From: Armatimonadota bacterium
GTDB lineage: Bacteria > Armatimonadota > SYMT01
Assembly: GCA_041690135.1 (NCBI GenBank)
Contig: JAWLHY010000007.1
Coordinates: 320,001 to 384,000 of the forward strand
Direction: 5' to 3'
Length of the DNA stretch: 64,000 bases
Shown here: positions 424 to 53,014 of the stretch, piece by piece
Position numbering within the stretch: the first letter of the stretch is position 1
How the letters are laid out: the number at the start of each line of letters is the position of its first letter
The notes under the pieces: generated by a model
Told to the model about the DNA's origin: nothing
Databases searched by the model: none
What the model saw: the letters and a program-made list of their open reading frames with translations, nothing else
Made by a program: the position numbers and the translations under genes

Positions 424-659
424 CCGGCTTTCACGGAGATTGGAATGGGGCAGGATACTCTCGGGTGAAGCCATTCACACAACTCCGTTCTCACGCTCGC
501 CCAACACCTGCGCCAGGGAAAGGTCGGTTCCAGGGAGAGTGTAGGTAATAGTTCTATCGATTGCGAAATGCCCGATCTGAGTGGAAGAGCATTTGACCGA
601 ATCGTTCCGAAGAACATGAAACACAGAAGAGCAATGTGCTCTCATGATGTCGATTGATC

Positions 660-1112
660 TCACTTCGCCTCCGCAAGCAAGCTGGGCTCATGAGATTGCA
701 TATACTCAAGTATTCGTACATATACTTCGTCACTGAGCAGGGTTGGCAGTTGACGGTCGAGTTGGTCAAAAAACTCGGAAACAGTAGGCTCGTGTGCCTC
801 AAGCCAGGCCCACCTTTCCGTCTCCAAAACTGGTGGCACACCACCCGGGAACACTGTCATGCTTTCCCTGAACACTCTTGCCCCCTCGAGAATACCTAGT
901 ACCGCCATTGATTGAGACACATCTTCCGCATCCCAACGGTTCTCGTAAAAGTATCCTAGTCCCCCATTATCCGTGAGAGTCAGTGCTGACCAACCCGTAT
1001 AGATATGTCGGCTTGCTGGTGATAAGCTGGTTAGCCCTGCGGAATTCACTTTGAGGGCTAGTTTTTCGCAGACTGACTCCACTACGTCCACAATTGACCG
1101 TTCATCCATCAT
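660..1112 (-). CDS. DUF4375/DMP19-like protein, probable toxin immunity protein
   Basis: NGGLGYFYEN motif typical of DUF4375, acidic helical protein, lower GC, first gene downstream of the RHS toxin tip; SD GGAGGG before ATGATG. Confidence 0.7.
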   Translation of the reverse strand: MMDERSIVDVVESVCEKLALKVNSAGLTSLSPASRHIYTGWSALTLTDNGGLGYFYENRWDAEDVSQSMAVLGILEGARVFRESMTVFPGGVPPVLETERWAWLEAHEPTVSEFFDQLDRQLPTLLSDEVYVRILEYMQSHEPSLLAEAK

Positions 1113-1288
1113 GCGCCCTCCCATAGATGACCCACTTCAATCAGTTGCAGTTGTGGCTGTAAACGACGAAACATGTTTGTCCCACCAGTTAGCGTGTGCC
1201 AAATCCAAGAGAAAATGTGCCTTACCTCGTCTAGGTCCATGATGCAACCATAGCTGATATGACAGAACTTCTGGCTGTTGTGCCACTG

Positions 1289-35877: not shown

Positions 35878-36642
35878 ATGCTCCTCCCCAACCCCGCCGG
35901 CAACTACCACTTCCTCTCCGGGATCGAGCCCTACTCCAGCGGGGTGGTGGCCGACCCCGGTTTCGAGATCATCCATGTCACCCTGGCGCGCCCCTGCCCC
36001 TGGCAGGAGGGGTTCGACCGGATCGAGGCGGTTTTGAAAGAGGCCGGACGCCCGCGGGCGGCGCTCTGCGGGATCGAGTTGCGCTCCCCCGCGCCCTTCA
36101 CGCGAGCAGGCTTCATCGAGTTCAACCAGGGCTACTGCCGGGTGATTGAGGCGTGGGAGCTGCTGGTCGACGGCCGGAACCCGGTGGCCCGGACGAACGT
36201 GGCGCCGCAGTGGGCCGCTCCCGCCGAGCCGTCGCTCTACGGCTTCTCTTATACCATGCCTCTGGCGGCTCCCGCCGTGTCCGCCGCACCCACCTTTGTG
36301 GTGGCCGGGGGCGGCGACCTCCGCGGCGGACCCCTGATGGAAGCGCAGGTGGTCCGTCCCGGCGAGACCTCCGAGGACGCCCTGCGCGAGAAGGCCGCCT
36401 ACGTGATGCACGTGATGGAGAAACGCCTCACCGGCCTCGGACGCACCTGGGCGGACGCGACCGCCATCGACATCTACACCCCCCACGCTCTCCCATCGGT
36501 CCTCGGTCCGGTGATCCTGGACCCCGCCGGCCCCGCCGCCATCCACGGGGTCCGCTGGTTCCCCTCCCGCCCCCCGATCGATGAACTGGAATACGAAATG
36601 GACGTGCGGGGTGTACGAACCGAGCTCGTACTCATGGGTTAG
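35878..36642 (+). CDS. CnbZ-like (2-amino-5-chloromuconate deaminase/RidA-fold) protein
   Basis: GNYHFLSGIEPYSSGVVADPGFEI, CGIELRSPAPFT, NPVARTNVAP, RPPIDELEYEMDVRGV. Confidence 0.75.
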   Translation: MLLPNPAGNYHFLSGIEPYSSGVVADPGFEIIHVTLARPCPWQEGFDRIEAVLKEAGRPRAALCGIELRSPAPFTRAGFIEFNQGYCRVIEAWELLVDGRNPVARTNVAPQWAAPAEPSLYGFSYTMPLAAPAVSAAPTFVVAGGGDLRGGPLMEAQVVRPGETSEDALREKAAYVMHVMEKRLTGLGRTWADATAIDIYTPHALPSVLGPVILDPAGPAAIHGVRWFPSRPPIDELEYEMDVRGVRTELVLMG

Positions 36643-36727
36643 CTCATAGGTGTTGGCGGGGTGCGAGTTCTCGACACAGACGGACACGAGAGGGGGCAAG
36701 AAGGGACACAGACTCCGACGGGAGTTT

Positions 36728-37215
36728 GACACGGAAGACACGGATACGACGGAAGGGCACGGAGGGTACGGAAGGGTGGGGAACGTACCGCGAAGCGCGT
36801 GGCGAGCCCTGGATGAACGGAAATGTAGGGGCAGCCGTACACCCGGCAGAGCTAGGGCTGCGCTTGCCCTCTTCTCGACTGGATGAGCGCCGGCAAAAGA
36901 GCACTGGCACCAGCGAACCCGGGGCCCGTAGCTCGGGCGCTGCGCGGGCTAACGCGAAAACGCGAAAAGACGAAAGACGCGAAAAGGGCGGGCACGCTGG
37001 GCGCGCTCGGTAGCCTATCAGGTGTTCAAACCGCGGCTTTGGTGGGGGGGAGGGTGACTGTAGGGGAATGGTCGCAGCCCCTTCCCCAGGTCATCGCTAC
37101 CGCACCCGTCCGCCAACCGTGATCCCGCCATCGGTCCGGACGCAATTCCGTGCGGTTATCATCCCTGTCCCGATCCCACCGCCCATCGACCGGGTTTACT
37201 TTCATCCTTCATCCC
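36728..37215. repeat. Left composite repeat block (four short modules)
   Basis: GACACGGAAGACACGGAT, GTACACCCGGCAGAGCTAGGG (36837-36857), GGGCGCTGCGCGGGCTAACGCGAAAACGCGAAAAG (36935-36990), TTCATCCTTCATCC; all recur inverted at 56245-56640. Confidence 0.75.
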
Positions 37216-37326
37216 CCTACGGGCCGAATGGCTTTCGCCTTCAACCCCTGGTCCCCGCAGTGCTGCCACTTTCAACCCCTGGCCGCCGGGGGGCTTCAAC
37301 CTTCAACCCTTGGCCCCCGAGGGGGG

Positions 37327-37389
37327 CTTCAACTTTCAACTTTCAACTTTCAACTTTCAACTTTCAACTTTCAACTTTCAACTTTCAAC
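37327..37389 (+). repeat. Heptamer tandem repeat (TTTCAAC)8 plus one CTTCAAC
   Basis: Counted directly; partial TTCAACC units also occur upstream. Confidence 0.95.
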
Positions 37390-37402
37390 AGAAACTCCCA
37401 TC

Positions 37403-37888
37403 CTAACCATCCTGTTCATCCTGTTCCTTCGTCCCCTCCAACCGCGGCACAACCTCCGCCTCCCAATAACTCCGCTTCCCGATCCGCGACCGATCCACGT
37501 CCGGCAGCGACGTCCAGGCCCGCGACCGCTCCCGGCTGGCCGCCACGTCGAAGCCGGGGTAGTCGTCCGCCACGAAGAGCCACTTGTGGTGGTAGATCCA
37601 GGGATCGGCCGGCTGCGACCGGAAGACGGCGCGGCCGTCGGGGTGGACCGTCCACAGGTCGCCGACCACCGGCTCCGGGGCGGTGTCCCAGTCCGGGCTG
37701 CGGATAAAGGTGACTGCCCCGGTCCGGTGGTTCAGCTTGACCACCGTACATTCGAATTCTTCCGGCAGGTGCCGGGCGGCCTCGGTTACTACAAGGCCGA
37801 GCCGGTCCGCATAGAGACGGTGGACGTAGACCGAGCCGCCGATCTCCTTGCCGACGCCGTATTTCGGGGAGCGCTTCTGTTCGGGCAT
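37403..37888 (-). CDS. Stand-alone homolog of the C-terminal domain of the PT-associated methyltransferase
   Basis: VGKEIGGSVYVHR / VVKLNHRTGAVTFIRSPDWDTAPEP / DPWIYHHKWLFVADDYPG aligns by eye with VGRLVDNALIVHR / VIKLHRFSGKVSYLVYPEFDTDPHP / DPFILYRKEALVPEEFPG of 39158-40744. Confidence 0.75.
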   Translation of the reverse strand: MPEQKRSPKYGVGKEIGGSVYVHRLYADRLGLVVTEAARHLPEEFECTVVKLNHRTGAVTFIRSPDWDTAPEPVVGDLWTVHPDGRAVFRSQPADPWIYHHKWLFVADDYPGFDVAASRERSRAWTSLPDVDRSRIGKRSYWEAEVVPRLEGTKEQDEQDG

Positions 37889-39157
37889 TTTGAATTCGGC
37901 CTCACCACGGAGTCACGGAGAAACGGAGTAGTACACGGAGAGGCGCAGGCAACCTTTTGCGCATTGACCAAGGCGTACTCGTAAGGTGTGGCAAGTGGAC
38001 TCAGTTGGTGTGCCGCTTGTCCCTTGCTTTCTGGAGTTGATGGAAAGCTTCTCCACGCCTTCCTTTCCCTGGCACGCTACCACTGGTGTTCACGCATTCT
38101 TGGCCAGGGACCTTGCAGGGGGCCATGTTACTTGTGGCTTTCATCTCACCCGGCCCGGCTGCCGGGTGGTCCACTCGCGCCTCACTGGCTCCGAGGCACC
38201 CGTTCGGCAGCGTTCTCCTGGCAATGCCTGTGTTGAAGACACCTTTGGTGTTCGCCACTTCCTTTTACGGGTACCGGGTAAGTCCCCCCGCGCCCTAGCC
38301 GCTCCCAGGCTCCCTTTCGGCTGAGTTCTCCCGGCAATGGCTGAGTCCTGCGGCTGTGCTGGAGTCACTTCTGGTGTTCGCCACTGCTTTACGGCTACCA
38401 GAAGGTCCCCCCAGCCCTAGCCTTGGGATCCCACCCTCCCGCGGAAGAAGCCTCCGCTCGGCCTTTCACGCTCCCTGCCCGCTCGCGGGCGCCCGTCGCT
38501 AGCGGCCGGCTGCGGCGTGCATCCCAGTCGCTCTGCCCGCGCCGCGATCGGGCGCAGTCCCTTCCACCGAGCGTGTACGGGTGGGCTCCCGGCGTCTTCG
38601 AGCTATCCCCCCTCTGGGGGATCACAACTGGCCGGCCCTGCCGGCGCGGGTTGGCAGCGCCTCAGCCCCCTAGCGCGGACGAGCAGGATAGCGTCATTCA
38701 GCCACTTCGCGTCGTGCAGGACATGGCAACCTCTCTTCATAGAGGGCGTGTCGGACGCCCTCACCTGTGACCTCCCCGGAGGGGGGAGGTCGCTCGACGA
38801 CGTGCCGAAGCTCCCGTCCAGCGCCCCCATGGGTTCCGCCGCGGGCCGTGGCGCGGGAAGCCAACCCTGGTGCGCACGCCGGAGCCAGCCGTTAGCCGGG
38901 GCCCCTTTGGGGTGGCGTGAAAGGCTGAGCGGAGGCCCGGCACGCGGGAGGGAGCTTCGGTGCGGCTAGGGCGCGGGGGGACTACCCGGTAGTCGGTCCG
39001 ATTGTGGCAAACCATCATCGGAGCTTTACGAACGCAAAATGCAGGCCGAGATGCGCCTGGCACCCGGCCGTTGGAATGCTAATTGGTGAAAACTCACCGT
39101 GCCCTCCCAAAACCCAAAGCAGGGACAACCCCTCCCAAAAACCAAACCCTAACCCAA

Positions 39158-40744
39158 ATGACCCCACCCACCCCCAACCCCCGCCCAGGCCCCGACCCCG
39201 CCACCGACGGCGCTTCCCCGATCGAAGGCCACCCCGCGACGGAAGGCGACTCCGCCTTGGAACCGGATCCCGCCACCGAAAGCGACGCCACCCCCGAGAT
39301 CCAGCGCCACCGCACCGCGATCCGGCGGGCGAACCTCTCGGTCCCCATCCAGTGCCTCCTCCGCGACGGCCTGCTGGACCCCGCCAGGAGCCTGTTCGAT
39401 TACGGCTGCGGGCGAGGCCAGGACCTGGAGCTGCTGCGGGGGATGGAGATCCCCTGCGAGGGGTGGGACCCCGTGTACCGTCCGGACACGGAGCGCCGGG
39501 CCGCGGACCTGGTGAACCTGGGCTACGTGATCAACGTGGTCGAGGACCCCCAGGAGCGGGCGGAGGCGCTGCGGCAGGCGTGGGGCCTCAGCCGTTCCCT
39601 CCTGGTGGTGGCGGCCCAGCTCGACGTTGCCGCGCCGGCCCAGGAACGGACCCGTTTCAACGATGGGGTGCTCACCTCCCGCGGGACCTTCCAGAAGTAC
39701 TACCGGCAGTCCGAGCTCCGCGCCTACCTGGAAGAGCAACTCGGGACCGAGGCGATCCCCGCCGCGCCCGGAATCTTCTACCTTTTCAAAGACGAGACCG
39801 CCCAGCAGCAGTTCCTCTCCAACCGATACCGCCGCCGGGAGGTGGTCCCGCGCCGCCGGATCTCGGAGATCCTCTTTGAGCAGAACCAGGATCTCCTGGA
39901 GCCGTTCATGGAGCGCCTCACCCAGTTAGGCCGGCTCCCGGGTCCCGAGGAATTCCCGGAATCGGCCGCGCTGATCGAGCGCCTGGGCTCCCTGAAGCGC
40001 GCCTTTGCCGTGATCCGACGGGTGACCGAAGAGGAGCCGTGGGAGACTATCGCCCGGCACCGCTCCGACGACCTGCTAGTCTACCTTGCCCTCGCGCGGT
40101 TCCACAAGCGCCCCATCCTCTCGAAGCTCCCCCTTGGCACCCAGCGGGACGTGAAGGCGTTCTTCGGGACCTACGACCGGGCCTGCCGCGCCGCGGACGA
40201 GCTGCTGATGACCGCCGGCGATGCGGAAGCGATCGACACCGCCTGTCAGCGGGCGCCCGTCGGCCGGCTGGTAGACAACGCCCTCATCGTCCACCGGTCT
40301 GCCCTCGACCACCTGGAGCCGCTCCTCCGGATCTACGAAGGCTGCGCCCGGGCGCTGGTGGGGGAGATCGAGGGGGCCAACGTGATCAAGCTCCACCGGT
40401 TCTCCGGAAAGGTGAGCTACCTCGTCTACCCCGAGTTCGACACCGATCCCCATCCGGCGCTCCGGCTGCGGGTGAAGGTCAACCTGCGGACCCTCGACAT
40501 GGAGTGGTTCGACTACGCCAGCCGGGAGGACCCGTTCATCCTTTACCGGAAGGAGGCGCTGGTCCCGGAAGAATTCCCCGGCCGGGAGAAGTTCGCTAAG
40601 CTGACGGCCCAGGAAGAACGGGTGGGGCTGCTGAAGCACGAGCGGCTGCTAGATACCCGCGGCAAGCTGGCGATACTCCTCGACCGGGCGGGGCTGAAGC
40701 TCGCCGGGCACAGCCTGCGCAAAGCATCCCGTTCGACCGGGTGA
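39158..40744 (+). CDS. DNA phosphorothioation-associated putative methyltransferase
   Basis: RHRTAIRR, FDYGCGRGQD (SAM motif), GWDP, VNLGYVINVVED, LTSRGTFQKYY; adjacent to the dnd cluster. Confidence 0.9.
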   Translation: MTPPTPNPRPGPDPATDGASPIEGHPATEGDSALEPDPATESDATPEIQRHRTAIRRANLSVPIQCLLRDGLLDPARSLFDYGCGRGQDLELLRGMEIPCEGWDPVYRPDTERRAADLVNLGYVINVVEDPQERAEALRQAWGLSRSLLVVAAQLDVAAPAQERTRFNDGVLTSRGTFQKYYRQSELRAYLEEQLGTEAIPAAPGIFYLFKDETAQQQFLSNRYRRREVVPRRRISEILFEQNQDLLEPFMERLTQLGRLPGPEEFPESAALIERLGSLKRAFAVIRRVTEEEPWETIARHRSDDLLVYLALARFHKRPILSKLPLGTQRDVKAFFGTYDRACRAADELLMTAGDAEAIDTACQRAPVGRLVDNALIVHRSALDHLEPLLRIYEGCARALVGEIEGANVIKLHRFSGKVSYLVYPEFDTDPHPALRLRVKVNLRTLDMEWFDYASREDPFILYRKEALVPEEFPGREKFAKLTAQEERVGLLKHERLLDTRGKLAILLDRAGLKLAGHSLRKASRSTG

Positions 40745-41245: not shown

Positions 41246-42618
41246 TAGTGGTCTGTCCCAGAAGTCCGTAAAGTAGTCGTGGCAGGTGCGGTACCGGTGT
41301 GATTCAACCCAGTAGGGTCCCACCGGAGGTGCTCATGCCACTACCCAAACCGCACTACCAACCCACTTTCACGTCCGAACAACTCGCCGAAGCGCGACAG
41401 GTGGTCGCCTGTCATTCTTCACCCCAAGCCCAGGTCCGCCGCGCCCGGCTGGCGCTGGTCCTGGCCGAACACCCGGACCTCTCCCACAAGGAGGTGGGCG
41501 CGCTCTGTGATCTCGACGATGAAACGGTCTATAAGTGGCGCCGCCGCTGGACCCTCCACGGTTGGTCGCTCACCGATGCCCCGCGGTCTGGCCGGGTACC
41601 CGCAAAGCGGGTGGGGCGGGCTTTTCCCCCTGCGGAGACCGTCCTGATTAAAGCCCTCGCCTGCGAACGCCCGGTGAATGAGAAACGGCGGGCGCTCGCG
41701 CGGTTGTCGGTCTACGATCTCTGCCTCCAGGCGTGGGAGTTGGGCGTCACCATGTCCTACAGTACGGTGTGGCGCCGTCTGCGCGAGGACGCCCTCCGCC
41801 CCTGGCTCTTTCAACAGGGGTTGTTTCCGCGCGACCCCCGCTTACTCGAGAAGGCTACCCCGATCCTGGAACTCTACCACGGCCGCTGGGAAGGCCAGCC
41901 GCTCGGCCCACGGGACCTCGTGCTCTCGGCCGATGAAATGACCGGCTTGCAGGCGCTCTCGCGGATCCACCCGGCACAGCCGCTCACCACTCCCTCCCAG
42001 GTGCCGCTCCCTGGCCGGCTGAAACGGCGGTATGACCCGCGGGTCCGCGTAGAGTTCGAATACGCGCGGCATGGCACACTGTGCTATCAAGCCTTCTTGA
42101 ACGTGTTTACGGGTCGAGTGTATGGTGAGGCCCACGACAGCAACGGGATCGACACCTTCGAACGGAGTCTCATGCACTGCCTGCAGCAACCGCAGTACCG
42201 GGACATGGAGCGGGTGTTCCTGATCGTAGACAATGAGAGCGCCCATCATCCGAATACTTCCCCGGCCCGGATTCGCGCCCAGGACCCACGGGTGATCACG
42301 GTGCATCTCCCCACCCACAGTAGCTGGCTCAACCAAATCGAGCTGTATTTCTCCACTCTCCACCGCAAGGCGCTGACCCCCGCCGACTTTCCCAGCGTCG
42401 CGGCGCTCCGGCAGCGGATCTTCAGTTTCCAACTCCTCTATAACCAACGGGCCGAGCCGTTCCAATGGCAGTACACCCGGGACCACTTGGAAGTCTACAT
42501 CGAACGCTTGGCCCTACACGAAGAGCGGTTTGCGGAGGCCGCGGCCATCATTCGGGCCCGGCGGCAAGCACAGGAGCCGGCCGCCGACTGCCTTACGCAC
42601 TAACGAATCGCACCACTA
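41246..42618 (+). mobile_element. IS630-family insertion sequence
   Basis: Ends cTAGTGGT...ACCACTAg (short inverted repeat, TA duplication in a CTAG site) flank the transposase. Confidence 0.85.
41335..42603 (+). CDS. IS630 transposase (single frame)
   Basis: HTH VYKWRRRW..DAPRSGR; DDE triad SADEM / IVDNESAH / SSWLNQIELYFS. Confidence 0.92.
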   Translation: MPLPKPHYQPTFTSEQLAEARQVVACHSSPQAQVRRARLALVLAEHPDLSHKEVGALCDLDDETVYKWRRRWTLHGWSLTDAPRSGRVPAKRVGRAFPPAETVLIKALACERPVNEKRRALARLSVYDLCLQAWELGVTMSYSTVWRRLREDALRPWLFQQGLFPRDPRLLEKATPILELYHGRWEGQPLGPRDLVLSADEMTGLQALSRIHPAQPLTTPSQVPLPGRLKRRYDPRVRVEFEYARHGTLCYQAFLNVFTGRVYGEAHDSNGIDTFERSLMHCLQQPQYRDMERVFLIVDNESAHHPNTSPARIRAQDPRVITVHLPTHSSWLNQIELYFSTLHRKALTPADFPSVAALRQRIFSFQLLYNQRAEPFQWQYTRDHLEVYIERLALHEERFAEAAAIIRARRQAQEPAADCLTH

Positions 42619-43048
42619 GCTAAATCTACCTGGCTCGACAGATGGCACCACATCCGCATGCATCAGAGACCTTCCAGATAGGAGTCTTTGATCCAACCGC
42701 CACATACCCCACCCATTAGTGTCGTATCCCATGCACACTCAGACCGTTAACGACTTCCGACTCCGCGCCAGGAGATTGCCCTCGATGCAGAACAACTGAG
42801 CCCCGCCACCCACGCTGTTTGCTCACAAAAAAGATTCGAACAAGGAAGGAGGATCTCGACAACTTACTGGATAAAAGAGAACCAAGCCCGCGTCACTCTG
42901 CTCGCGGCACGAACTCACATTCTTCCGCGGCGTGGACAACCGATAACCTCACTGTCTACCTAGCTTCGGCCAAAGCCTGAATTGGCGCGCATGCCAAGGG
43001 AAGATGCGTTACGTTTCGGCACAATAGCTAGGAGGCATGTGAGCCGTG

Positions 43049-45187
43049 ATGTTGAGTGATCTAATGCTGCGTCTTGAGTACCGAAGTGACGAAGTGGTTC
43101 TCGCGGACGATCTCTACGAGAAATGCCTCCCGCAGTGCAGTCACTTCGATCGCGCCGTCGGGTTCTTTTCTGCGAGCGTATTCGCCGCTTGCCCAGAGGG
43201 ATTTCGTGCATTTTTCACGTCAGGTGGGAGAATGCGAGTTGTCTGCTGTCCAATACTCAGCCAGTCAGATATTGAAGCAATTCACAACGGGTATTTCGAC
43301 CGACCAACACTCATTCGTTCAGCATGTCCGGAAGTGCTCACCAATGGACGAGCAAAGGCACTGCTGGAAATCCACAGGCTAACATCGTGGCTTATAGCTA
43401 CAGGAAGACTAGATGTCCGCATTGCTCTACGTGACTCAAGAGGAGGCAACCACATCTACCACGAAAAACTCGGTCTCTTCGGTGATCGAACTGGAAACTG
43501 GATTGCGTTCTCCGGTTCGGCGAATGAAACACTTTCGGGCATTGAAGGAAACTTCGAAGCTATAGATGTTTTTCGCTCTTGGAGTCCAGAGGAACGTCGC
43601 CGTGTCGATCAGAAACTGCGTGCATTCAAACAACTGTGGAGAAACGAGACTGCGGGAGTTGAAGTAATAACCTTCGCCCAAGCTGCAACACGAGGCGAAC
43701 TAAAGGTGCGGACTACTTCTGCACAGGCGAATAATAAAATTCCCCACGGCACAGAGGTCATCACCTCAATAGAAGACATGGAACCACTACCTGGCATTGA
43801 GGAGCTTCTCCTCATCCCCAGCGACACCAAGCTTCGAGACCACCAGAAGGTTGCCGTTCGCAAATGGTTTGAATCAAATGGACGCGGATTGTTTGTAATG
43901 GCAACAGGCGCCGGCAAGACTATTGCTGCTTTGGCCGCTGCAACGAAGCTCTATGAATGGCTAAATGCTCCGCTTTTCATCGTAATTGTCTGCCCCTATT
44001 TGCATTTGTGTGCACAATGGATTGAAGAAGCTAAGCAATTTGGGCTTGACCCCCTTCTGTGCGCCGTGGATCGCCGTACTTGGTACGAGCCGCTCTCGAC
44101 AAGGTTGTTCAACCTTGCGTTCGGCACCCGCAAACTAGCTAGTGTTGTCGTATCGAATACTACATTCGCTTCACAGGCATTTCAAACACTGCTCAACAGA
44201 GCCCCCAGAGCATCGCTGCTAATCGCCGATGAAGTGCACCATCTTGGAGCTCCCGGACTGCGAACTGCGTTGCCAGAGGGCTTTGCATTCCGAATCGGGC
44301 TATCGGCTACTCCCAGTCGTTACCAAGATGCTACGGGTTCTGCGAAGATACTCGAATACTTTGGCGACCCCGTCTGCAGCTATACCCTGAAGGATGCTCT
44401 TCAGAGCGGAGTTCTTTGTCCCTATCGTTATATACCCGTTCTCGTTGACTTAGAAGACGATGAACTGGAATCGTATGTTGAGCTCACACGGAAGATCGGA
44501 CAGCATATTCGCGTAACTGACCCTCGAGAGGGAAATACATATCTTGACTCTCTTCTGTTAAAACGAGCACGCATCACTGGCACAGCTCGCGGGAAAATCC
44601 CAGCACTGGCCGAGCATCTTGCTCCTCTGCGCAAAAGCACACATAATCTCATTTACTGCGGTGACGGCACTGTCGAAGGAGAGATCGAACAAACCGTCAT
44701 CCGACATGTCGATGCTGTCGTTCGGGTGCTTGGACGGGATCTTGGAATGGCCGTTGCAAAGTATGTTGCTGACACTCCGCTTACGAAGCGACACCAGTTG
44801 AGACGGCGGTTTACCGATGGAGATCTCCAAGGACTTGTTGCCATCAGGTGTCTCGATGAAGGGGTTGACGTTCCAGAAACTAGGCGGGCGTTTATTCTTG
44901 CGAGCAGCACTAATCCACGACAGTTCATTCAGCGCCGCGGGCGCATTCTCCGGCAGGCTGCTGGCAAGGAGATGGCAGAAATCTACGATTTTATCACCGT
45001 TCCAGCACCTGAGGAGATCGAGCCCACCAATCCCATTTATGGCACTGCGCGTAGACTCTTCCGCAGAGAACTGAGTCGAATCGTGGAATTCGCAGGACTT
45101 GCGGTAAATGGACCTGAGGCGCTGAACGTACTCCTTCCCTTAAGGCAGAGCCTTAACCTCCTTGATTTTGGAGAAGATGATGAGTAG
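43049..45187 (+). CDS. pbeA: PLD-nuclease/SF2 helicase, PT-system restriction component (PbeA-like)
   Basis: DRAVGFFS, YHEKLGLFGD...FSGSANET (PLD); MATGAGKT, IADEVHH, GLSATP, LDEGVDVP, QFIQRRGRILR. Confidence 0.8.
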   Translation: MLSDLMLRLEYRSDEVVLADDLYEKCLPQCSHFDRAVGFFSASVFAACPEGFRAFFTSGGRMRVVCCPILSQSDIEAIHNGYFDRPTLIRSACPEVLTNGRAKALLEIHRLTSWLIATGRLDVRIALRDSRGGNHIYHEKLGLFGDRTGNWIAFSGSANETLSGIEGNFEAIDVFRSWSPEERRRVDQKLRAFKQLWRNETAGVEVITFAQAATRGELKVRTTSAQANNKIPHGTEVITSIEDMEPLPGIEELLLIPSDTKLRDHQKVAVRKWFESNGRGLFVMATGAGKTIAALAAATKLYEWLNAPLFIVIVCPYLHLCAQWIEEAKQFGLDPLLCAVDRRTWYEPLSTRLFNLAFGTRKLASVVVSNTTFASQAFQTLLNRAPRASLLIADEVHHLGAPGLRTALPEGFAFRIGLSATPSRYQDATGSAKILEYFGDPVCSYTLKDALQSGVLCPYRYIPVLVDLEDDELESYVELTRKIGQHIRVTDPREGNTYLDSLLLKRARITGTARGKIPALAEHLAPLRKSTHNLIYCGDGTVEGEIEQTVIRHVDAVVRVLGRDLGMAVAKYVADTPLTKRHQLRRRFTDGDLQGLVAIRCLDEGVDVPETRRAFILASSTNPRQFIQRRGRILRQAAGKEMAEIYDFITVPAPEEIEPTNPIYGTARRLFRRELSRIVEFAGLAVNGPEALNVLLPLRQSLNLLDFGEDDE

Positions 45188-45365
45188 AGTGAAGGATACC
45201 AACGAGACGCAGGCGAAACTCGTGGCCATCTTGGACAACCTTTCCAAAGAAGAAAGGCAACTTCTTACGGACGTGCTGATAGCCGAACGCGCAAAGTTGT
45301 ATATGGGTCTCCCACGTGGGATTCACGAAGACCTATGGCGTATTGTAACGGAGACTATCCGATGA
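45177..45365 (+). CDS. pbeB: Small helical protein (PbeB-like)
   Basis: 62 aa, overlaps both neighbours; assigned by position and size. Confidence 0.6.
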   Translation: MMSRVKDTNETQAKLVAILDNLSKEERQLLTDVLIAERAKLYMGLPRGIHEDLWRIVTETIR

Positions 45366-47434
45366 TATTCGAAGAGCTTATGTTGAAGGATTTTAGGCAG
45401 TTCGCGGGTGAGCAGTGTCTGCGCTTCGCAACCGAGCCGAACAAGAATGTCACCGTTATTCACGGCTTCAACGGTTCTGGGAAGACTACATTACTCAACG
45501 CGTTTACCTGGTTATTATATAATGAGTTTACGCTCGACTTTGAAGCGCCAGAACACTTGGATTCTGAAGCAGCCTTCTCTAATGTTGCGTACGGAGACAG
45601 TCTCACAGTGTCGGTTCGTGCGGTGTTCAGAGACGGGCAACGCAAATATAGTGTAACACGGACTAGGATAGTTCAAAAGTCAACTGATGGAAGCAGGCTC
45701 CTCGTTGAACCAGGCAAACTACGACTCACTTTCATCGATGAAAGTGGCGAGACCCGAGAACCGAGTAATCCGCAAGACACACTAGAGCAGATGTTGCCGA
45801 GGCGCCTCTTTCCCTTTTTCTTCTTTAACGGTGAACGTATTGAACGATTAGCTCGAGCTGATGCATACGAAGAAATTGGAAAGGGAATTAAGACACTGCT
45901 TGACATTGAGCTATTCGACCGCTCAATTGGTCATCTGGAGGGAGAAACATCCAAGAAGCTCCGGGTGGAGATTGCCCGTTGTGCTGGGGAGGAGGGAGAA
46001 CATGCTAGAGAAGAGCTTGACCGTCTCCTAGAGGCAGAGGAGAAACAAACGGGGCGCCTCCGTCAGTTTGAGCGAAATCGAGCAGCGCTTGAAGAGGAAC
46101 GGGAAGCCATCGATAGTAAGCTCGCAAGCATGCCGGATCTGGCTAAATGGCAAGCTGAAAGAAAGGCTGCCGAGGAACGCGAGAAAGACATCAAGCGCCA
46201 AATGAAGCAACGCAAGGAGGAGCTTGCCAAGGAATTCTCGCGGAGTGCCTACCTCCTATTGACGCCTGACGTGCTCGATGCGGCGAAAGCGGTCCTTTCT
46301 GGTGCACGACAGAAAGGTGAGATCCCAGGCCCAATTAAAAGGCAATTCGTTGAAGACTTGCTTGCAAGACGAAAGTGCATTTGTGACTGTGAACTGGTTC
46401 CTGATACTGTTGCCTACAAGGAGGTGGAACAATGGCGCGACCGGGCATTTTCAGATGCTTTGGAGTCGGCAGTTACGGTAACGCAGGCGCGCATCGAGTC
46501 GTTTGGCCAACGCGCAGAGGAGTGCATCAGAAGAATAAATGATTTGCAAGCAATCCGCGATGAACTGTATTCTAGCCTCCAGGATGTGCAAGAGGAACTC
46601 AGCGAACTCTCAAATAAGATTGGCGATCGGGAGCAAGGTGAAGACCCTGTAAAGTTGGAGCGCAGACGGAGAGAGGTCGGTGAGTTACTTACTACATGTA
46701 TCCTGCATATTGCCGACCAGAAGAAAGCGCTCGATGAACTCGCGGAATCTATTCGTGGAAAGAAGAGGGAGATCGATGCCCTGGACATCGCTGATGAGAA
46801 GGGCAAGCTCGCGCAAAGGAGGCTAGATGCAGTCTCAAATGTAATTGCTGCCTTGAAAGAGATTCGGGAGGTGCGATATGAGGAGCTGCGACAGGATCTC
46901 TCCGATCAATTGAGTGACGTGTGGAGAGGTATTGCTGTCAAAGATTATCATGCCCGACTCGACGATGATTTTCGGCTGAGTCTTACAAAGGACGTGGGAG
47001 GACAGGTAGAGCCGGTACGAGGTGCTTCGACAGGGGAAAAGCAGGTATTGAGCCTTGCCTTTGTTGGAGCACTCATTGCAAAGGCCAAGAATACGTTCGA
47101 GCGCTCGAAGCAAGCAAACCACCTGTTTCGTGGAGGACTTTACCCGTTAGTGATCGATTCACCGTTCGGCAACCTCGAGGTCGAATATCGTCGTGATGTA
47201 GCGAAGTGGATCCCTACTCTTGCACCGCAACTTATCTTGATGGTGTCCGAGAGCCAGTTTCGGCAAGAGGTGGAGCAAGAGCTTCTTCCGCGGATTGGCA
47301 AAGAGTGGATTCTTAAGTGCGAGACGCCCAGGAACACGGGGCGTGACATCGCACTCTTGGGACGGTCTTATCCGTATGTGATTCAGTCGATGGATGGATT
47401 TGAGAGAACAGTGTTCGAGGAGGTAGAACTATGA
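45362..47434 (+). CDS. pbeC: SMC/Rad50-like ABC ATPase with CxC hook (PbeC-like)
   Basis: GFNGSGKTT, FFFFNGERIE, coiled coils, CICDC, ASTGEKQ, LVIDSPFGNL. Confidence 0.8.
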   Translation: MIFEELMLKDFRQFAGEQCLRFATEPNKNVTVIHGFNGSGKTTLLNAFTWLLYNEFTLDFEAPEHLDSEAAFSNVAYGDSLTVSVRAVFRDGQRKYSVTRTRIVQKSTDGSRLLVEPGKLRLTFIDESGETREPSNPQDTLEQMLPRRLFPFFFFNGERIERLARADAYEEIGKGIKTLLDIELFDRSIGHLEGETSKKLRVEIARCAGEEGEHAREELDRLLEAEEKQTGRLRQFERNRAALEEEREAIDSKLASMPDLAKWQAERKAAEEREKDIKRQMKQRKEELAKEFSRSAYLLLTPDVLDAAKAVLSGARQKGEIPGPIKRQFVEDLLARRKCICDCELVPDTVAYKEVEQWRDRAFSDALESAVTVTQARIESFGQRAEECIRRINDLQAIRDELYSSLQDVQEELSELSNKIGDREQGEDPVKLERRRREVGELLTTCILHIADQKKALDELAESIRGKKREIDALDIADEKGKLAQRRLDAVSNVIAALKEIREVRYEELRQDLSDQLSDVWRGIAVKDYHARLDDDFRLSLTKDVGGQVEPVRGASTGEKQVLSLAFVGALIAKAKNTFERSKQANHLFRGGLYPLVIDSPFGNLEVEYRRDVAKWIPTLAPQLILMVSESQFRQEVEQELLPRIGKEWILKCETPRNTGRDIALLGRSYPYVIQSMDGFERTVFEEVEL

Positions 47435-47898
47435 GCGAGCCGAGACGTATCCGTCCACCGAAAGAGTATGAGAAACTGATCGACAAACTTGTTGAAGGGG
47501 GAGTGTTCGAAAGCAAACAGGCTGTGATGATGTTTGCTGCGGCTTTGGGAAAACGCTTCAACGGTCGTAAAGAGATCGGACAACCCGGTGATGGGATCCG
47601 TTGGCACATATTTGAGAAGGCAGGCGATGACGCATTTGTAAACGCGCTTGCGCTAGCGGAAAGCAATGATATAAACATTCTAGATCCAGAGCGTGGCGAT
47701 GGAGAGGATGTTCAGTTGGTGTTTGAGGAATACGCCGCAGGCGGTTTCGAGTATTTGAAGCCGCATGTTACGGAAGCGCCGGGTGATTGGCTAGAAAATG
47801 CGCTGTCGATTATTCAGGAATATCGGGGGGCACATCCATTACCACCAGGGCTGGAGGATATGGACCCAGCAGGGTTGGAGTTGATCGGGGATTTTTGA
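47431..47898 (+). CDS. pbeD: Dnd-associated protein 4 / PbeD-like
   Basis: RRIR...VFESKQAVMMFAAALG...FEEYAAGGFEYL; ATGA coupling with the ATPase gene. Confidence 0.7.
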   Translation: MSEPRRIRPPKEYEKLIDKLVEGGVFESKQAVMMFAAALGKRFNGRKEIGQPGDGIRWHIFEKAGDDAFVNALALAESNDINILDPERGDGEDVQLVFEEYAAGGFEYLKPHVTEAPGDWLENALSIIQEYRGAHPLPPGLEDMDPAGLELIGDF

Positions 47899-47927
47899 TC
47901 CCCGAGAGGGAGTTCTTGTTCAGCACA

Positions 47928-49097
47928 TCAAAAGAGTGACTTCAAACTTTCTACAGCATTGATGAGCACCGTGACGGCGGTATCGATTTCATTGTCCTTA
48001 TTGGACCTTCCGACACTCAGCCTCACGGCACTGTGGGCGCGCGTGTTCCCGTAGCCAAGTGCAAGTATGACGTGTGAGGGTTCGACTGAAGAGGATGTAC
48101 ACGCTGATCCTGTTGCCAACGCGAGGTTGTGAAGTTCGGGTAGCAAGGCTTTGCTTTGGATACCAGGGAAGGTGATGTTGAGGTTGTTCGGGAGTCGATC
48201 GGTTGGGTGTCCATTCAAAGCAATGTTGCCAATGGCCGTGGATAAGGTGTTCCAAATCTGGGCGGTCCAGTTGCGAAACCTTATGGCATCTGAAGCCATT
48301 TCTCCTTTTGCGATCCGAAGGGCCTCCCCAAACCCAACTATTCCTGGTACATTTAGTGTCCCTGAACGCATCCCGCGCTCGTGTCCACCACCAAAGTGGA
48401 TTGGAGCAATTCTAGCGCGGGGATTGCTGGCTCGCACATAGAGTGCACCGATTCCTTTGGGTCCGTAGATCTTGTGAGCGGACATTGAGAGTAGGTGTAT
48501 GCCCATCCGTTTTACATCGATGGGTATGTGCCCCACGGCCTGGGCGCCGTCGCAGTGAAAAAGGATCTCATGCTCTTCGGCAATGGCGCCGATCTCTGCG
48601 ATGGGGGCGAGCGTGCCGATCTCGTTGTTTGCCGCCATGATTGAAACTAAAATTGTGCGGGGGGTGATCGCCTTACGCACGTCTTCGGGATCGACGCGCC
48701 CGTATTGGTCGACGCGTAAGTAAGTGACCTGCTTGCCAAACTGTTCGAGCCTCTTGCAAGCATCCAAAACAGCTTTGTGTTCCGTCACCGATGTGATGAT
48801 GTGGTCACCGCGGTTGGTGTAGCGTTCGGCCACGCCCAAAAGGGCGAGATTGTCGGATTCGGTAGCCCCGCTGGTGAAGATGATCTCGTCAGGGTGAGCG
48901 TTGATCAGAGATGCGATGTGCGCGCGTGCTTGGTCGACTGCCTGTTTTGCCTCGTATCCGAATTCGTGGTCCGTACTCGCGGCATTTCCAAACACTTCCG
49001 TAAAGTACGGCAGCATTGCTTCCAGGACCCGAGGGTCCACGGGCGTAGTTGCGTTGTGATCGAGGTAGATCCGCCTAGGCTTCATCGTGGCCACCAT
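47928..49097 (-). CDS. dndA: Cysteine desulfurase of the PT system
   Basis: IYLDHNATTP, FTSGATESDN, SAHKIYGPKG, GSACTS; overlaps dndE. Confidence 0.92.
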   Translation of the reverse strand: MVATMKPRRIYLDHNATTPVDPRVLEAMLPYFTEVFGNAASTDHEFGYEAKQAVDQARAHIASLINAHPDEIIFTSGATESDNLALLGVAERYTNRGDHIITSVTEHKAVLDACKRLEQFGKQVTYLRVDQYGRVDPEDVRKAITPRTILVSIMAANNEIGTLAPIAEIGAIAEEHEILFHCDGAQAVGHIPIDVKRMGIHLLSMSAHKIYGPKGIGALYVRASNPRARIAPIHFGGGHERGMRSGTLNVPGIVGFGEALRIAKGEMASDAIRFRNWTAQIWNTLSTAIGNIALNGHPTDRLPNNLNITFPGIQSKALLPELHNLALATGSACTSSSVEPSHVILALGYGNTRAHSAVRLSVGRSNKDNEIDTAVTVLINAVESLKSLF

Positions 49098-49524
49098 CTA
49101 TCTCGTTCTCCTCTGCGCTCGCTTCCGGTAATGCGAGATCAAGCTCCGCTCGCACTTCCGATGGCATCAGCAGTGCGAGATCGTGGATCCGTCGGACCCG
49201 CTTATGCAGGAGCATGACCCCACGACCGATATGCGCGCGGAAGTAGAGCCCTAACGTATCGTCATCGGTAGGCAATCCATCTTGTTCGCACCGAACCTTG
49301 ATCAGCGCGACAAACATTCGGTCCCAATGCCCGGTAAGCACCGGACGCTCGATCTCTCGCTCCGACGTGGGCGGGTAGTGGGCGGGGTTCGGAAGGGTTG
49401 GGTCTTCCAGCGAGAGACAGAACGCGATCCGGCAGAGAATATTTGGCGTGAGGCCGGTCTTGGCTTTGAGGCTGGAGAGATTCTTTGACGTCTCTTCGCT
49501 TACCTTTAGACGATTGAGTTTCAT
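49075..49524 (-). CDS. dndE: DNA sulfur modification protein DndE
   Basis: LKAKTGLTPNILCRIAFCLSL...FRAHIGRG. Confidence 0.92.
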   Translation of the reverse strand: MKLNRLKVSEETSKNLSSLKAKTGLTPNILCRIAFCLSLEDPTLPNPAHYPPTSEREIERPVLTGHWDRMFVALIKVRCEQDGLPTDDDTLGLYFRAHIGRGVMLLHKRVRRIHDLALLMPSEVRAELDLALPEASAEENEIDGGHDEA

Positions 49525-51572
49525 CCGACGAGGTCCAGCTCAGGAGTCAACTTGGGGGTAGGCGCCGGTTCCTCAAGGTGCACGAACGTTCCCCCAGTCT
49601 CCAGGTTGTATTCCAGGTCGTAGGTTCGCGCTAGGAGGGGTTCGAGGCTTTGAGCGATCATCGCGTCTGCTTCGGCATCGGTTGCGAGAAGAACGGTCTG
49701 CTGACTAACGCGGGGGAAGAACTGTTCGACCATCGCTTCTCGATGGTCAGCATCTAGCCTGGCCACGGGTGTATCCGTTATAACGGGGATAGGCAGTCGG
49801 GAAACATCCCGCATAGCCCAGAGAGTTGCTGTGGCGAGCAGTTGCCGTTCCCCGGCGGACAGTGAAGCTCGGTCGAAAGGCCGTCCATACCGGTAAAGCG
49901 TAAGTGCGAATGTACTTGGATCGATCACGACGTCTGTAACAAACCCCGGCTTGCGGCACAATTCTTCGAACCGCAGGGTTATTGCCCGTTGAAGTAGCGT
50001 CAGCTTGTGTTGGAGGAGTTGCTCGCCATACTGTTCCAGCACTCGTTGTGTTTTGAGGACCAGGTCGACGCGACGGTGCCCCTTGTTCGCATCGTCCAGC
50101 CGTTGGCGAACGGCTTTTAGGCGCCAGCCAGATTGCCGGTGTTCGAACTCTTGCTTGCGCCTCTGCTCCTCCAGTGCTTCCTTCTGGGCGTAGATTTCCC
50201 CGAGTCGATGATGAAGACTATTCAGGTCCCTGATGATCGGGGCCAAGGTCTCCTGTGAAGGGATCTCCGCTAGACGGTGCTCCACATCCACCATTTCTCT
50301 TTCGAGGCGTGTAAGCTCAGCAGTGGCCTGACAGAACTGCCGGGGAATGTTCGTCTGGCTATCCTCTGCCCACGACGTGAGAAGCGCTTTATCGTGGCTG
50401 GAAGCGTGGAGAAGCAGATTTCGGGTACCATTGGACCCACAGGCGAAGTCCTGCAGCAAGCGGTCTCGGAGAACTGCCGCAACGCGTGTACTGGCTTCAG
50501 CGCTTGGTGCAGTTGCAATGCCGTTCCAAAGAGCAGGGTTAGCGAGTTCCTGTGCCAGCAGGGCTTCTGCACGCGTGGCCAACTCGCGAACGAGTTGGGA
50601 TTGCTGCAGTTGGCTTTCTTGTTCCAATCGCTGTACGATCAACTGACAGTACTTGGGCGAGACGGCGAACGGCAACAAACCTGATGCAAGTTCGTGAATG
50701 TTGATGCGTTGCCTGTCGATCTCTCCCCGAAGCCGATCAGCCTGTCGCCGGAGTTCACCAAGGTGATAGGCGAATCCGTGCCCTTCTTGTGCAAGACGCT
50801 GCTCTTGGTGTGCGATGCTTCCCTTCAACAGTGCCAGGCGTTCATTGGTATCGACGAGTTCCGCCTCTGTGTTTCGTAATCTGTCTGCAAGACGGTCGAC
50901 TTCGGCAGCGGCATCCTCCAGCTCTCGACTGAACTCTTTGCTGCTGCCATCCAAGCTACGGGATAGATAGACGTCCAGATCGCCTTGGAGGCGGTGTACC
51001 AGATCTAATCCCAAGAGGGAGTGCACCATCTCCGCCAACAGACTGCTGCTCGAGGCATCCGCGGACAGGGCGTCGAGCTTCTCATTGTCCAACAAGAAGA
51101 GTTCGCTTACACAGACCGGCACTAGTTCGCGCAGGAATGCTTCCTTCTGGTCGGCATTTAAGTCGTCGAGTAAGTGGTAATCCTCGGAGACCTCTAGTTT
51201 CTCAACAACTCCGGACGACCCGCGTTTCCACGAACGTCTGATCTCATAGTGAAACTTACGTCCAGAAAGAACATATTCTAATGCCATGGCCACGCCCGCC
51301 TCAGTTGGCTCTTGAAGGCCTGGCGCTGGACGGTGAATACGGGCTTCCAGGTGCTTCTCGTACTCATCTCGGCTCACACTGCTGCCCAGAGCCAATCTCC
51401 CGTGAAGACAGAGGCGGACGGCCTCTAGCAGGGTAGTCTTACCAACGCCGTTCTTTCCCGTGATCAGCACCAATGGACGTTGGTAATGTCCGTCGGACGA
51501 AGGCTTTAGGTTGAAATTCTGAAATCCTGCGTAGGGTCCGAAATTGCGTATCCGGAGCTGTTTGATGATCAT
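49521..51572 (-). CDS. dndD: DNA sulfur modification ATPase DndD
   Basis: NFGPYAG, GKNGVGKTT, LSAGERQ, ITDTPVARLDADHR, LATDAE. Confidence 0.93.
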   Translation of the reverse strand: MIIKQLRIRNFGPYAGFQNFNLKPSSDGHYQRPLVLITGKNGVGKTTLLEAVRLCLHGRLALGSSVSRDEYEKHLEARIHRPAPGLQEPTEAGVAMALEYVLSGRKFHYEIRRSWKRGSSGVVEKLEVSEDYHLLDDLNADQKEAFLRELVPVCVSELFLLDNEKLDALSADASSSSLLAEMVHSLLGLDLVHRLQGDLDVYLSRSLDGSSKEFSRELEDAAAEVDRLADRLRNTEAELVDTNERLALLKGSIAHQEQRLAQEGHGFAYHLGELRRQADRLRGEIDRQRINIHELASGLLPFAVSPKYCQLIVQRLEQESQLQQSQLVRELATRAEALLAQELANPALWNGIATAPSAEASTRVAAVLRDRLLQDFACGSNGTRNLLLHASSHDKALLTSWAEDSQTNIPRQFCQATAELTRLEREMVDVEHRLAEIPSQETLAPIIRDLNSLHHRLGEIYAQKEALEEQRRKQEFEHRQSGWRLKAVRQRLDDANKGHRRVDLVLKTQRVLEQYGEQLLQHKLTLLQRAITLRFEELCRKPGFVTDVVIDPSTFALTLYRYGRPFDRASLSAGERQLLATATLWAMRDVSRLPIPVITDTPVARLDADHREAMVEQFFPRVSQQTVLLATDAEADAMIAQSLEPLLARTYDLEYNLETGGTFVHLEEPAPTPKLTPELDLVG

Positions 51573-53014
51573 ACAGATTCACCATCCGCCATTGGGAACA
51601 GTGTCCCGTTTCCGTTCCTCTCCTGTTCGTGCTCTTCTAGTGCTTGCTCCAGGGTGCGCCAGTCTTGTCGCAGGACACGGTCGATTGTCTTGTGGATTGT
51701 GGCTCGGCGGCGCATGCCGAGATGTGCTCGCTCGGCATCCAGCAGTTGCTGAACTAGGCGGACGGGCGTCTCGTGTGCCTCTGCAATCTGCGTAAGCAAG
51801 TGGGCTTCCTCTCGCCCGGGAGTACTCACATCATCTGCCTCGAAGTGTAGTTGCTTACCCAGTGCTTCGGCATAGATGCCAGGCAACGCATCTTCCCAAT
51901 CCTGCCGTTCCGTCACCCAGATATGGCGTATCTCACGCAGTTCATCTTCCTCAATCAGCATGAAGGAAGGGTCGTGTTCCCACACCTCCCGTTGGGCGCG
52001 GAGCAGTCGCCGCAGGATGGTTTGACAGAACGCCAAAGTGTAGGTCCGATAGCGAACCCGACCATCGTCGGTGATTTTGATACGGCCGTCTCGGCTCCTA
52101 TATTCGCGGTCGATGTGCTTCTGGTCGGAAGACTGAGTAGCCGCCAGCCAGTCGCGAAAGTTTAGAAGTGGCTCCAACCACTCTTCCCCAGAGTCAATCA
52201 TCGCCTGCATCGAACGATCGCGCGCGACGACCGTGCAGGTCCAACAGCCAAAGCGACTGTTTCCGCAAGAGGGGGTGCTCTTGTCAATCACTAGAGGGCA
52301 CTCACCGGACTGCGCCGAGCGGTAGAGGGCAGCCAGGCTCGTATTGTCTCCTCCCCACGGCGATGGAACCTGGAGAAGATACTTCCAGACATCGTCCGCG
52401 GAGAAGTGCTCGACAGGCATGAAGACCCAGGCGCCGGGAAGCTGACCGTGCCGCGCAAGGTCATGCCCTTTTACTTCATGAAGGTTGATTACCTGATCCC
52501 GAGAGGCGCTCTCGCCACGGCGGGTGCCAAGTACCAGAATGACGTCACCATGCTTTGCCACCTGTTCTAGGATGAACCGATTCGAAGGCTGGATCTTCAA
52601 GCGATCGGTACACCAGCGAAAGTTGTTGCCCGGCGCTGGATAACCTCGTCCGATCAAGTTCACCCAGAAGGTGTCCTGTAGCCGCGGTTTGAGCTTGTGG
52701 GTGGAAAACGGCAATCCTCTTGACGCAGCCGCATCGCTCAGCTGCCGGAGAGTCGTGTTGATGTAGTCCACAATTACTGGTGTTTCCACCAGTGTATCCG
52801 TCGAGATGACGTAAATAGGCTTGGTTAACTGGTCAGGTGGCAGGTCCGCAAGCGCGTACCAGACCAACTGCAAGACGGTGGTCGAGTCCTTGCCGCCACT
52901 GTATCCAATCACCCAGGGATGGGGGTAACGTTGATAAATCGCCCGAATGTGTGCGTAGGCCGCTTCAATAGGATTGGCGGGAGCTTCTCGGGGTTCTTCG
53001 AATAGCATTCTCAT
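51569..53014 (-). CDS. dndC: PT sulfurtransferase DndC
   Basis: PWVIGYSGGKDS, DTLVETP, FRWCTDRLKI, GECPLVID..TPSCGNSRFGCWTC. Confidence 0.96.
   Translation of the reverse strand: MRMLFEEPREAPANPIEAAYAHIRAIYQRYPHPWVIGYSGGKDSTTVLQLVWYALADLPPDQLTKPIYVISTDTLVETPVIVDYINTTLRQLSDAAASRGLPFSTHKLKPRLQDTFWVNLIGRGYPAPGNNFRWCTDRLKIQPSNRFILEQVAKHGDVILVLGTRRGESASRDQVINLHEVKGHDLARHGQLPGAWVFMPVEHFSADDVWKYLLQVPSPWGGDNTSLAALYRSAQSGECPLVIDKSTPSCGNSRFGCWTCTVVARDRSMQAMIDSGEEWLEPLLNFRDWLAATQSSDQKHIDREYRSRDGRIKITDDGRVRYRTYTLAFCQTILRRLLRAQREVWEHDPSFMLIEEDELREIRHIWVTERQDWEDALPGIYAEALGKQLHFEADDVSTPGREEAHLLTQIAEAHETPVRLVQQLLDAERAHLGMRRRATIHKTIDRVLRQDWRTLEQALEEHEQERNGNGTLFPMADGESV

Follow-up and report, generated by a model that had tools for sequence, protein, structure and literature searches.

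The 64,000-nucleotide stretch analysed here (contig JAWLHY010000007.1 of assembly GCA_041690135.1, from an Armatimonadota bacterium, and called the window below) carries two divergently transcribed genes that form the subject of this work. On the minus strand, the small gene P0001 (37403-37888) encodes a protein of 161 amino acids that consists of a stand-alone domain (approximately residues 5-150) followed by an acidic tail (residues 150-161). On the plus strand, the gene at 39158-40744 encodes a methyltransferase (MT) of 528 amino acids (P0336) from the family TIGR04096, named 'DNA phosphorothioation-associated putative methyltransferase'. Its core (39296-39847, plus strand) is a Rossmann-type S-adenosylmethionine (SAM) methyltransferase with the motif FDYGCGRG, as recognised by Pfam Methyltransf_23 and Foldseek, and its C-terminal domain (40238-40678, plus strand) is paralogous to the small protein according to BLASTP, the TIGR04096 model and profile-profile comparison. 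We call the domain of the small protein A-type and its copy in the MT B-type. The complete open reading frame (ORF) of the MT (39083-40744, plus strand; P0002, 553 amino acids) opens at a TTG located 25 codons before the ATG of the 528-residue form, and the N-terminal ∼45 residues are rich in proline and threonine and predicted to be disordered. Judged from its sequence, the locus encodes a putative methyltransferase whose accessory module is detachable and consists of a domain not described before. The small protein is probably a functional partner of the MT that supplies the A module in trans, and the two would associate physically.

The relationship between the small protein and the MT C-terminus is supported by several comparisons. 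BLASTP aligns residues 5-112 of the small protein with residues 389-500 of the 553-residue MT (31% identity over 117 columns, E 7e-9), and this single alignment includes all three blocks of likeness that an initial reading of the window, made from the sequence alone (the sequence-only reading), had quoted. The TIGR04096 model covers the MT almost completely (603 bits, positions 1-476 of 478, with a cut-off of 150 bits); it matches the small protein only at model positions 322-463 with 26.4 bits (E 2.7e-6), which is below the cut-off. The small protein is thus a homologue of one TIGR04096 domain and not a full member of the family. Profile similarity, on which the sequence-only reading had let its proposal depend, is highly significant when 37 small proteins are aligned by hhalign with 24 MTs chosen without the extra domain (probability 96%, E 4.6e-9, 139 columns). 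Besides, AlphaFold models display the same order of secondary structures in the small protein and in the MT C-terminal region, with a mean predicted local distance difference test score (pLDDT) of 93.3 for the small protein and 86.9 for the MT. Together, the BLASTP alignment, the profile-profile comparison and the common order of secondary structures place this homology beyond chance. As previously claimed, the small protein contains no SAM motif. It has no match in Pfam, to a methyltransferase or to any other family. The B-type copy differs from the A-type domain at characteristic positions, where YHHKW is replaced by LYRKE and DDY by EEF.

The 161-amino acid ORF has the attributes of an intact gene of the expressed type, as far as its composition and conservation can tell. 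Its GC content at the three codon positions (0.69/0.46/0.86) resembles that of the MT gene (0.72/0.45/0.89), and the third-position GC content (GC3) of the native gene lpdA is 0.90; the overlapping shadow ORFs do not exhibit the codon-position pattern of the small gene. Among 335 candidates in a search restricted to proteins of 88-282 amino acids, 292 are stand-alone homologues, and the 119 other homologues listed are 55-75% identical to the small protein over ∼90% of its length. In an alignment of 37 sequences that includes the small protein, 24 columns are invariant. They include K14, H23, K51, E72, P96, Y99-H100-H101, W103, Y110 and F113, as well as S118, R121-S122, D132, G137 and W142. The small protein shows every conserved residue by which the stand-alone A-type family is recognised.

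The association between the A-type domain and the MT recurs well beyond the window. We collected 59 loci encoding relatives by a pattern scan of one genome per species; they come mostly from metagenome-assembled genomes and isolates of Planctomycetota, with a few from Cyanobacteria and Bacteroidota and one from a Desulfobacteraceae metagenome-assembled genome. The MT was searched for in these loci by tblastn with the MT of the window, and the hits in L048 and L060 were dropped (<100 amino acids, <45% identity). The sequence-only reading had regarded the two genes as a unit, and indeed a TIGR04096-type MT lies next to the A-type gene, or is fused to it, in 38 of the 59 loci. The two are fused in frame in 16 cases, at either end of the MT: the MT precedes the A-type domain in 15 loci and follows it in one. 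Separate genes occur as a divergent pair like that of the window in 15 loci (gaps of 64-997 nucleotides), as an A-type gene followed by an MT in five (gaps of 32-3371 nucleotides, one of these MTs being a 40-amino acid fragment at a contig end) and as an MT followed by an A-type gene in two. No MT is seen in the remaining 21 loci, 15 of which offer <3 kb on one side or the other and are uninformative, leaving six with at least 3 kb on both sides. The MT is 57-68% identical to that of the window in all 15 divergent loci, and 28-52% identical in the class where the MT is fused upstream of the A-type domain.

The fused proteins reveal how the modules are arranged. In P0124 (771 amino acids), the TIGR04096 match spans residues 14-487 and an A-type domain, 59% identical to the small protein, follows at residues 565-719. 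The inverse disposition, in which an A-type domain precedes the MT core and the B-type domain, is found in P0199 and P0240 and in the single 681-amino acid reading frame of L024 (TIGR04096, 611 bits); these three proteins bear out the statement of the sequence-only reading that longer family members carry the domain at both ends. The order seen in P0124, with the MT, its C-terminal domain and then the small-type domain, is nevertheless the commoner one. Identity to the small protein is 56-63% for the A-type domains inside long TIGR04096 members. The modules thus follow a classical fusion/fission pattern, an argument for joint action of the small protein and the MT. Separately, we noted an MT with a B-type domain at its N-terminus in addition to the C-terminal one in L074 (G262:C377, 202-2659, minus strand). 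Its C-terminal part lies in another frame and runs into a 277-amino acid ORF that includes an extra region; the record holds masked letters, so that a frameshift and an assembly error look alike.

On these grounds, the small gene encodes, as a protein of its own, the A-type version of an unnamed α/β domain of ∼145 residues, and a diverged B-type paralogue of this domain forms the C-terminus of the neighbouring TIGR04096 MT. Since relatives hold the A-type domain in the same chain, in the order A-MT-B or MT-B-A, the window would contain a split three-module enzyme. Fusion or adjacency in 38 of the 59 loci leads us to infer that the A module acts on the substrate of the MT. Its role would most likely be the binding of a substrate or ligand, for targeting or gating, through a surface marked by the invariant residues K14, H23, K51, E72 and Y99-H100-H101-K102-W103. 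The HH and DD motifs have been lost from the B copy, which is probably a fixed structural copy. The recognition of DNA or of phosphorothioate by the A-type domain, which the sequence-only reading had put forward, is a candidate idea at this stage, and the decoy and regulator roles mentioned alongside it gained no specific support. The A-type core is only mildly basic (mean net charge +3, standard deviation 3). A prediction of the complex between MT residues 45-528 and the small protein, computed with alignments and without controls, scored 0.00 and is evidence neither way.

Structural comparisons agree with the earlier view that the domain is uncharacterised. Pfam contains no model for it, and a sequence search of the PDB gave no relative of the A-type profile; for the MT, this search returned only a chance-level match to L7/L12 (E 0.18). 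The model of the small protein has no match in the PDB at E≤0.001 with Foldseek (best E 0.13) or at Z 5 among the 48,161 chains compared by VIA-align (best Z 3.7), and the ESM Atlas yielded no usable match. No PADLOC model fits the small protein or the MT. The MT core itself matches Pfam Methyltransf_23 with an E of 2e-4, below the gathering score. Among the best 50 of its 76 significant Foldseek matches, the neighbours are small-molecule, natural-product and tRNA methyltransferases (E 2e-5 to 6e-4), including cg3271, CcbJ, KedS8, TylM1, Trm9, METTL6 and a glycine-sarcosine methyltransferase, and there is no DNA methyltransferase. Hallmarks of DNA methyltransferases are the (D/N/S)PP(Y/F) motif or the PC motif of C5 enzymes. 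An NxxY-like string after the fourth strand of the MT was considered as an amino-methyltransferase motif and dropped, as it aligns, in our reading of the sequence, with the ordinary 'D-V-V...h-v-e-D' region of Methyltransf_11/23.

The second context of the locus is DNA phosphorothioation. Downstream of the MT, beyond an IS630-family transposase gene (41299-42603, plus strand), the window harbours an island (43046-54162) whose nearest gene begins 2.3 kb past the MT end. The restriction side consists of PbeA (43046-45187; an HKD nuclease joined to a superfamily 2 (SF2) helicase, TIGR04095), PbeC (45335-47434; a DndD-like ABC ATPase) and dnd_assoc_4 (47431-47898; TIGR04062), all on the plus strand. 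A complete dndBCDEA set follows on the minus strand, with dndA at 47928-49097, dndE at 49075-49524, dndD at 49521-51572, dndC at 51569-53014 and dndB at 53011-54162. The GC content of the island is 51-57% in a genome of 65-69%, and GC3 is 0.48-0.52 for the restriction genes and 0.60-0.65 for dndBCDEA versus 0.86-0.89 for the MT pair. The dnd/Pbe island was probably acquired recently, beside an MT pair of native composition.

Linkage to phosphorothioation was also surveyed among the neighbours of the 59 loci, for which all ORFs were clustered by BLASTP and one representative per cluster was annotated. The most widespread neighbours are SF2 helicases or PbeA-like or type-IV-like restriction proteins (13 loci), followed by SspD (nine), HNH proteins (eight), SspC, DndA/SspA and a BrxL-kinase (seven each), DndD-like proteins (six), DndF (five) and DndC (four); the cysteine desulfurase cluster counted as DndA/SspA could include the housekeeping IscS. 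At least one Dnd or Ssp gene (SspD, SspC, DndA/SspA, DndC, DndD-like or DndF) is present in 20 of the 59 loci and in 15 of the 30 loci of at least 12 kb. The stand-alone homologues are therefore linked both to MTs and, in half of the long loci, to phosphorothioation genes, which the sequence-only reading had taken as a key to its proposal. Across the phylum, an even sample of 301 genomes contains the MT above the cut-off in five (G000, G148, G293, G248 and G262), DndC in 14 and SspD in 26, no genome having both DndC and SspD. DndC or SspD occurs in four of the five MT genomes versus 36 of the 296 others, a comparison based on few and non-independent MT genomes, though from four different families. 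The MT genome that lacks both genes (G262) is 87% complete. As only four of the 40 phosphorothioation genomes contain the MT, it appears as an occasional accessory. A strong small A-type gene is found in three of the 301 genomes, beside the MT in G000 and G293 and on a 3-kb contig in G010, and in none of the six genomes of the same family. In bacteria, the unit is an accessory that Dnd and Ssp phosphorothioation islands possess only occasionally.

The A-type domain is also spread among phages, plasmids and very large proteins. A profile search over 1.84 billion cluster representatives returned 1376 matches at E≤1e-3, 905 at E≤1e-10 and 268 at E≤1e-30. The best 150 comprise 61 proteins of up to 230 amino acids, 49 of 231-500, 21 of 501-1000 and 19 of more than 1000 (to 5360). 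In 18 giant proteins, Pfam identifies Methyltransf_23 beside the domain in four, Kinase-PolyVal, LPD38 and GGDEF in two each, a Mu portal together with DUF6884 in one and NUDIX in one, and no family in four. In 40 mid-size proteins, it finds Methyltransf_23/11 in 10, single cases of NlpC/P60, NFACT-R, NUDIX and ParB_N, and nothing in 26. The MT and the A-type domain occur in either order among short two-domain proteins. PHROG 16075 (306 positions) matches the A-type domain with an E of 1e-23 over positions 19-157, and tblastn detects 51 records of KVP40-like Vibrio phages with 37-39% identity over 86% of the small protein. There are also 15 plasmid records that match the small protein and one viral predicted structure, a 1232-amino acid fragment (E 2.6e-10). 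In their domain composition, the giant A-type proteins correspond to the polyvalent proteins known from phages and conjugative elements. Such elements carry the same dyad of MT plus domain, often inside giant polyvalent proteins, and the phage and polyvalent proteins with the domain show no phosphorothioation context. As a side observation, KVP40.0371 of Vibrio phage KVP40 (L081:3947-4909; 320 amino acids) combines an A-type domain at approximately residues 19-157 with an uncharacterised C-terminal half. Its N-terminus, MSIIFE, resembles the L/I-x-E site cut by the T4-type prohead protease, and this would fit packaging into the head.

Several observations weigh against a partnership between the small protein and the MT, or against its link to phosphorothioation. 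Six loci with at least 3 kb on each side (L031, L037, L058, L060, L062 and L068) show no MT. Reciprocally, the MT of G148 (583 bits) comes without any small-protein homologue that we could find, and most MT homologues have a length of ∼490 amino acids. A TIGR04096-type MT core is not detectable by BLAST in 135 of the 150 best profile matches, and the KVP40-like phages carry the domain with no annotated MT adjacent to it. These MT-less occurrences indicate that the domain can act without this MT. The invariant histidine, aspartate and glutamate residues that are specific to the A-type domain could belong to a catalytic site and not to a surface for binding. Finally, the foreign composition of the island and the interposed IS630 element, as opposed to the native composition of the MT pair, imply that the adjacency to dnd in the window may be secondary.

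Part of these observations would suit the main alternative, an A-type protein that is an autonomous enzyme or reader of the MT pathway, hydrolysing, sensing or otherwise processing the product or the substrate with no bound subunit involved, so that linkage would merely reflect a shared pathway. The set of invariant polar residues (K14, H23, K51, E72, H100, H101, S118, R121, S122 and D132), which is partly missing from the B-type copy, is in line with such a function. So are the stand-alone genes with no MT nearby, in the six long loci, on Vibrio plasmids and in KVP40-like phages, and the fusions of the domain to unrelated enzymes and modules (NUDIX, NlpC/P60, ParB_N, GGDEF and the kinase of polyvalent proteins). 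However, neither Pfam nor Foldseek, VIA-align or the PDB search returned a known catalytic fold or family, and the MT is by far the commonest identifiable fusion partner. Frequent fusion to the MT, at either of its ends, is a pattern more typical of the modules of one enzyme. We regard an autonomous function as unlikely, and a trans-acting module of the MT as the better description of the small protein.

A more ambitious version of this trans-acting module can be formulated, which we consider a long shot. The A/B domain would have a novel fold and recognise the substrate on which an as yet undescribed SAM-dependent modification takes place, one connected with the DNA backbone or its sulfur, for example methylation at or beside phosphorothioate sites. 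In bacteria, the module would give Dnd/Ssp islands an additional level of marking or control. The dyad injected by phages and conjugative elements, in polyvalent or head-packaged proteins, would counterfeit or erase the mark, and the free A-type protein would serve as an interchangeable subunit for specificity or sensing.

The divergent arrangement, present in 15 of the 59 loci, is reminiscent of the C-proteins of restriction-modification systems and would suit a small protein acting as the transcriptional controller of the MT gene. Yet Pfam, NCBIfam, Foldseek and VIA-align detect neither a helix-turn-helix nor another DNA-binding family, and the protein is a paralogue of an internal domain of the enzyme that is fused in frame to the MT in 16 loci. 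Moreover, the charge of its core is just ∼+3 and the domain also resides inside giant virion-type and polyvalent proteins, which makes a controller very improbable. Hardly credible at all, and rejected here, is the reading of the small ORF as what is left of a duplicated, decaying MT gene, or as an ORF that arose by chance: it does match just the 3' third of the family model, many shadow ORFs arise in GC-rich DNA and the 1269-nucleotide upstream spacer is long enough to have held an MT core, but this spacer consists of repeat DNA, in which searching the genome in six frames for the family brings up no trace of an MT core, the 292 stand-alone homologues are conserved over their full length with every family-invariant residue kept in the small protein, the coding GC3 pattern holds and the AlphaFold2 model has a pLDDT of 93.

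The spacer that separates the two genes (37889-39157) deserves a separate description. It contains no ORF over its 1269 nucleotides and consists largely of repeat DNA. Inverted repeats of 35 nucleotides at 38281-38315 and 38949-38983 bound an element of ∼700 nucleotides; at least 10 copies related to the segment 38404-38995 lie on other contigs of the genome (66-80% identity), and a dispersed unit of 43 nucleotides at 37901-37943 has more than 20 genome copies (86-93% identity). These repeats look like miniature inverted-repeat transposable elements (MITEs) or repetitive extragenic palindromic (REP) elements that pushed the small gene and the MT further apart. An Rfam scan of 36500-39300 gave no match. 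A scan of the spacer for the sigma-70 consensus gave no site, as expected if the host uses other promoter types. On the other side of the small gene, directly 3' of its stop codon, lies a perfect array of the heptamer TTCAACT (8.9 copies, 37328-37389), preceded by 31-nucleotide repeats at 37238-37340. This length-variable tract could affect the transcript end or be a genome-wide repeat. Outside the window, G000:C7:117839-118042 (L006) weakly matches TIGR04096 at positions 322-389 (E 0.18) with one in-frame TGA, possibly a decayed third copy of the domain or a chance match.

What these results change is the way in which the TIGR04096 family can be viewed. The family is named for phosphorothioation and is large (4157 proteins at E≤1e-10 among 8000 candidates scored). 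The locus and its relatives display a modular enzyme made of an MT core, a B domain and an optional A domain; the last of these occurs as a separate gene, as a fusion to either end of the enzyme or on its own. With two small genes that can be expressed jointly or singly, the split form in bacteria gives an easy genetic handle on what the MT methylates. The A-type domain is also wider than first assumed: its cluster representatives number 1376, Pfam has no model of it, and the searches found no relative of solved structure. The family sits on both sides of the phage-host conflict. To speak of an undescribed system, as the sequence-only reading did, would be an overstatement; what emerges is an accessory module of some Dnd/Ssp islands and phages and no self-contained system.

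Compared with TIGR04096 (dnd_rel_methyl) as a whole, the small protein has neither the MT core nor the helical middle region, and it represents a distinct and more conserved subtype (A). No experimental characterisation of TIGR04096 was found in the literature searched. In this literature, the product name occurs in what is, by its title, a genome characterisation of Rhodococcus, and neither TIGR04096 nor dnd_rel_methyl was found. The methylase passages of a reappraisal of Dnd systems (PMC10853773) do not describe the MT or the A-type domain; this source names a domain, MTaX1, as accompanying methylases in CxC-DndE systems, whose definition was not found in the literature searched and which may or may not correspond to the A/B domain.

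Polyvalent proteins (PMC5512222) are close in composition to the giant proteins of 1000-5360 amino acids in which the A-type domain is found with Kinase-PolyVal, LPD38, a Mu portal, DUF6884, GGDEF, NUDIX and Methyltransf_23. The parts of that study that concern a DarB-like N6-adenine methylase, LPD36 and a SNF2 module do not describe the MT or the A-type domain (Iyer et al. 2017, PMC5512222). The small protein differs in being a single-domain chromosomal protein of 161 amino acids with host-like codon usage, so that only the domain is common; no Pfam LPD model matches it. In the same way, PHROG 16075 has the A-type domain in common with the small protein and not the whole architecture; its member KVP40.0371 has an extra C-terminal half, no annotated MT beside it and no phosphorothioation context. 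An A-type domain common to Dnd/Ssp defence islands and to phage/plasmid polyvalent proteins is typical of the modules of two-sided host-parasite conflicts.

Two other known systems bear on the proposed function. The sulfur-binding domain (SBD) of ScoMcrA-type phosphorothioate readers is a fold with a sulfur-binding pocket. A domain of this type would suit the recognition of phosphorothioate; Foldseek and VIA-align identify no SBD or reader fold in the small protein, and no family match points to one, though such a fold may have gone undetected. The HsdS specificity subunit of Type I systems, as well as Trm112, the activator of Trm9 and Mtq2, are small separate proteins that are needed by, or direct, a class-I methyltransferase. 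The A-type protein resembles them by analogy only, since no relation in sequence or fold to HsdS or Trm112 was seen, although the Trm9 of a Trm9-Trm112 complex (5cm2_Z) is among the structural neighbours of the MT core. What sets the present pair apart is that the separate partner is a paralogue of the enzyme's own domain.

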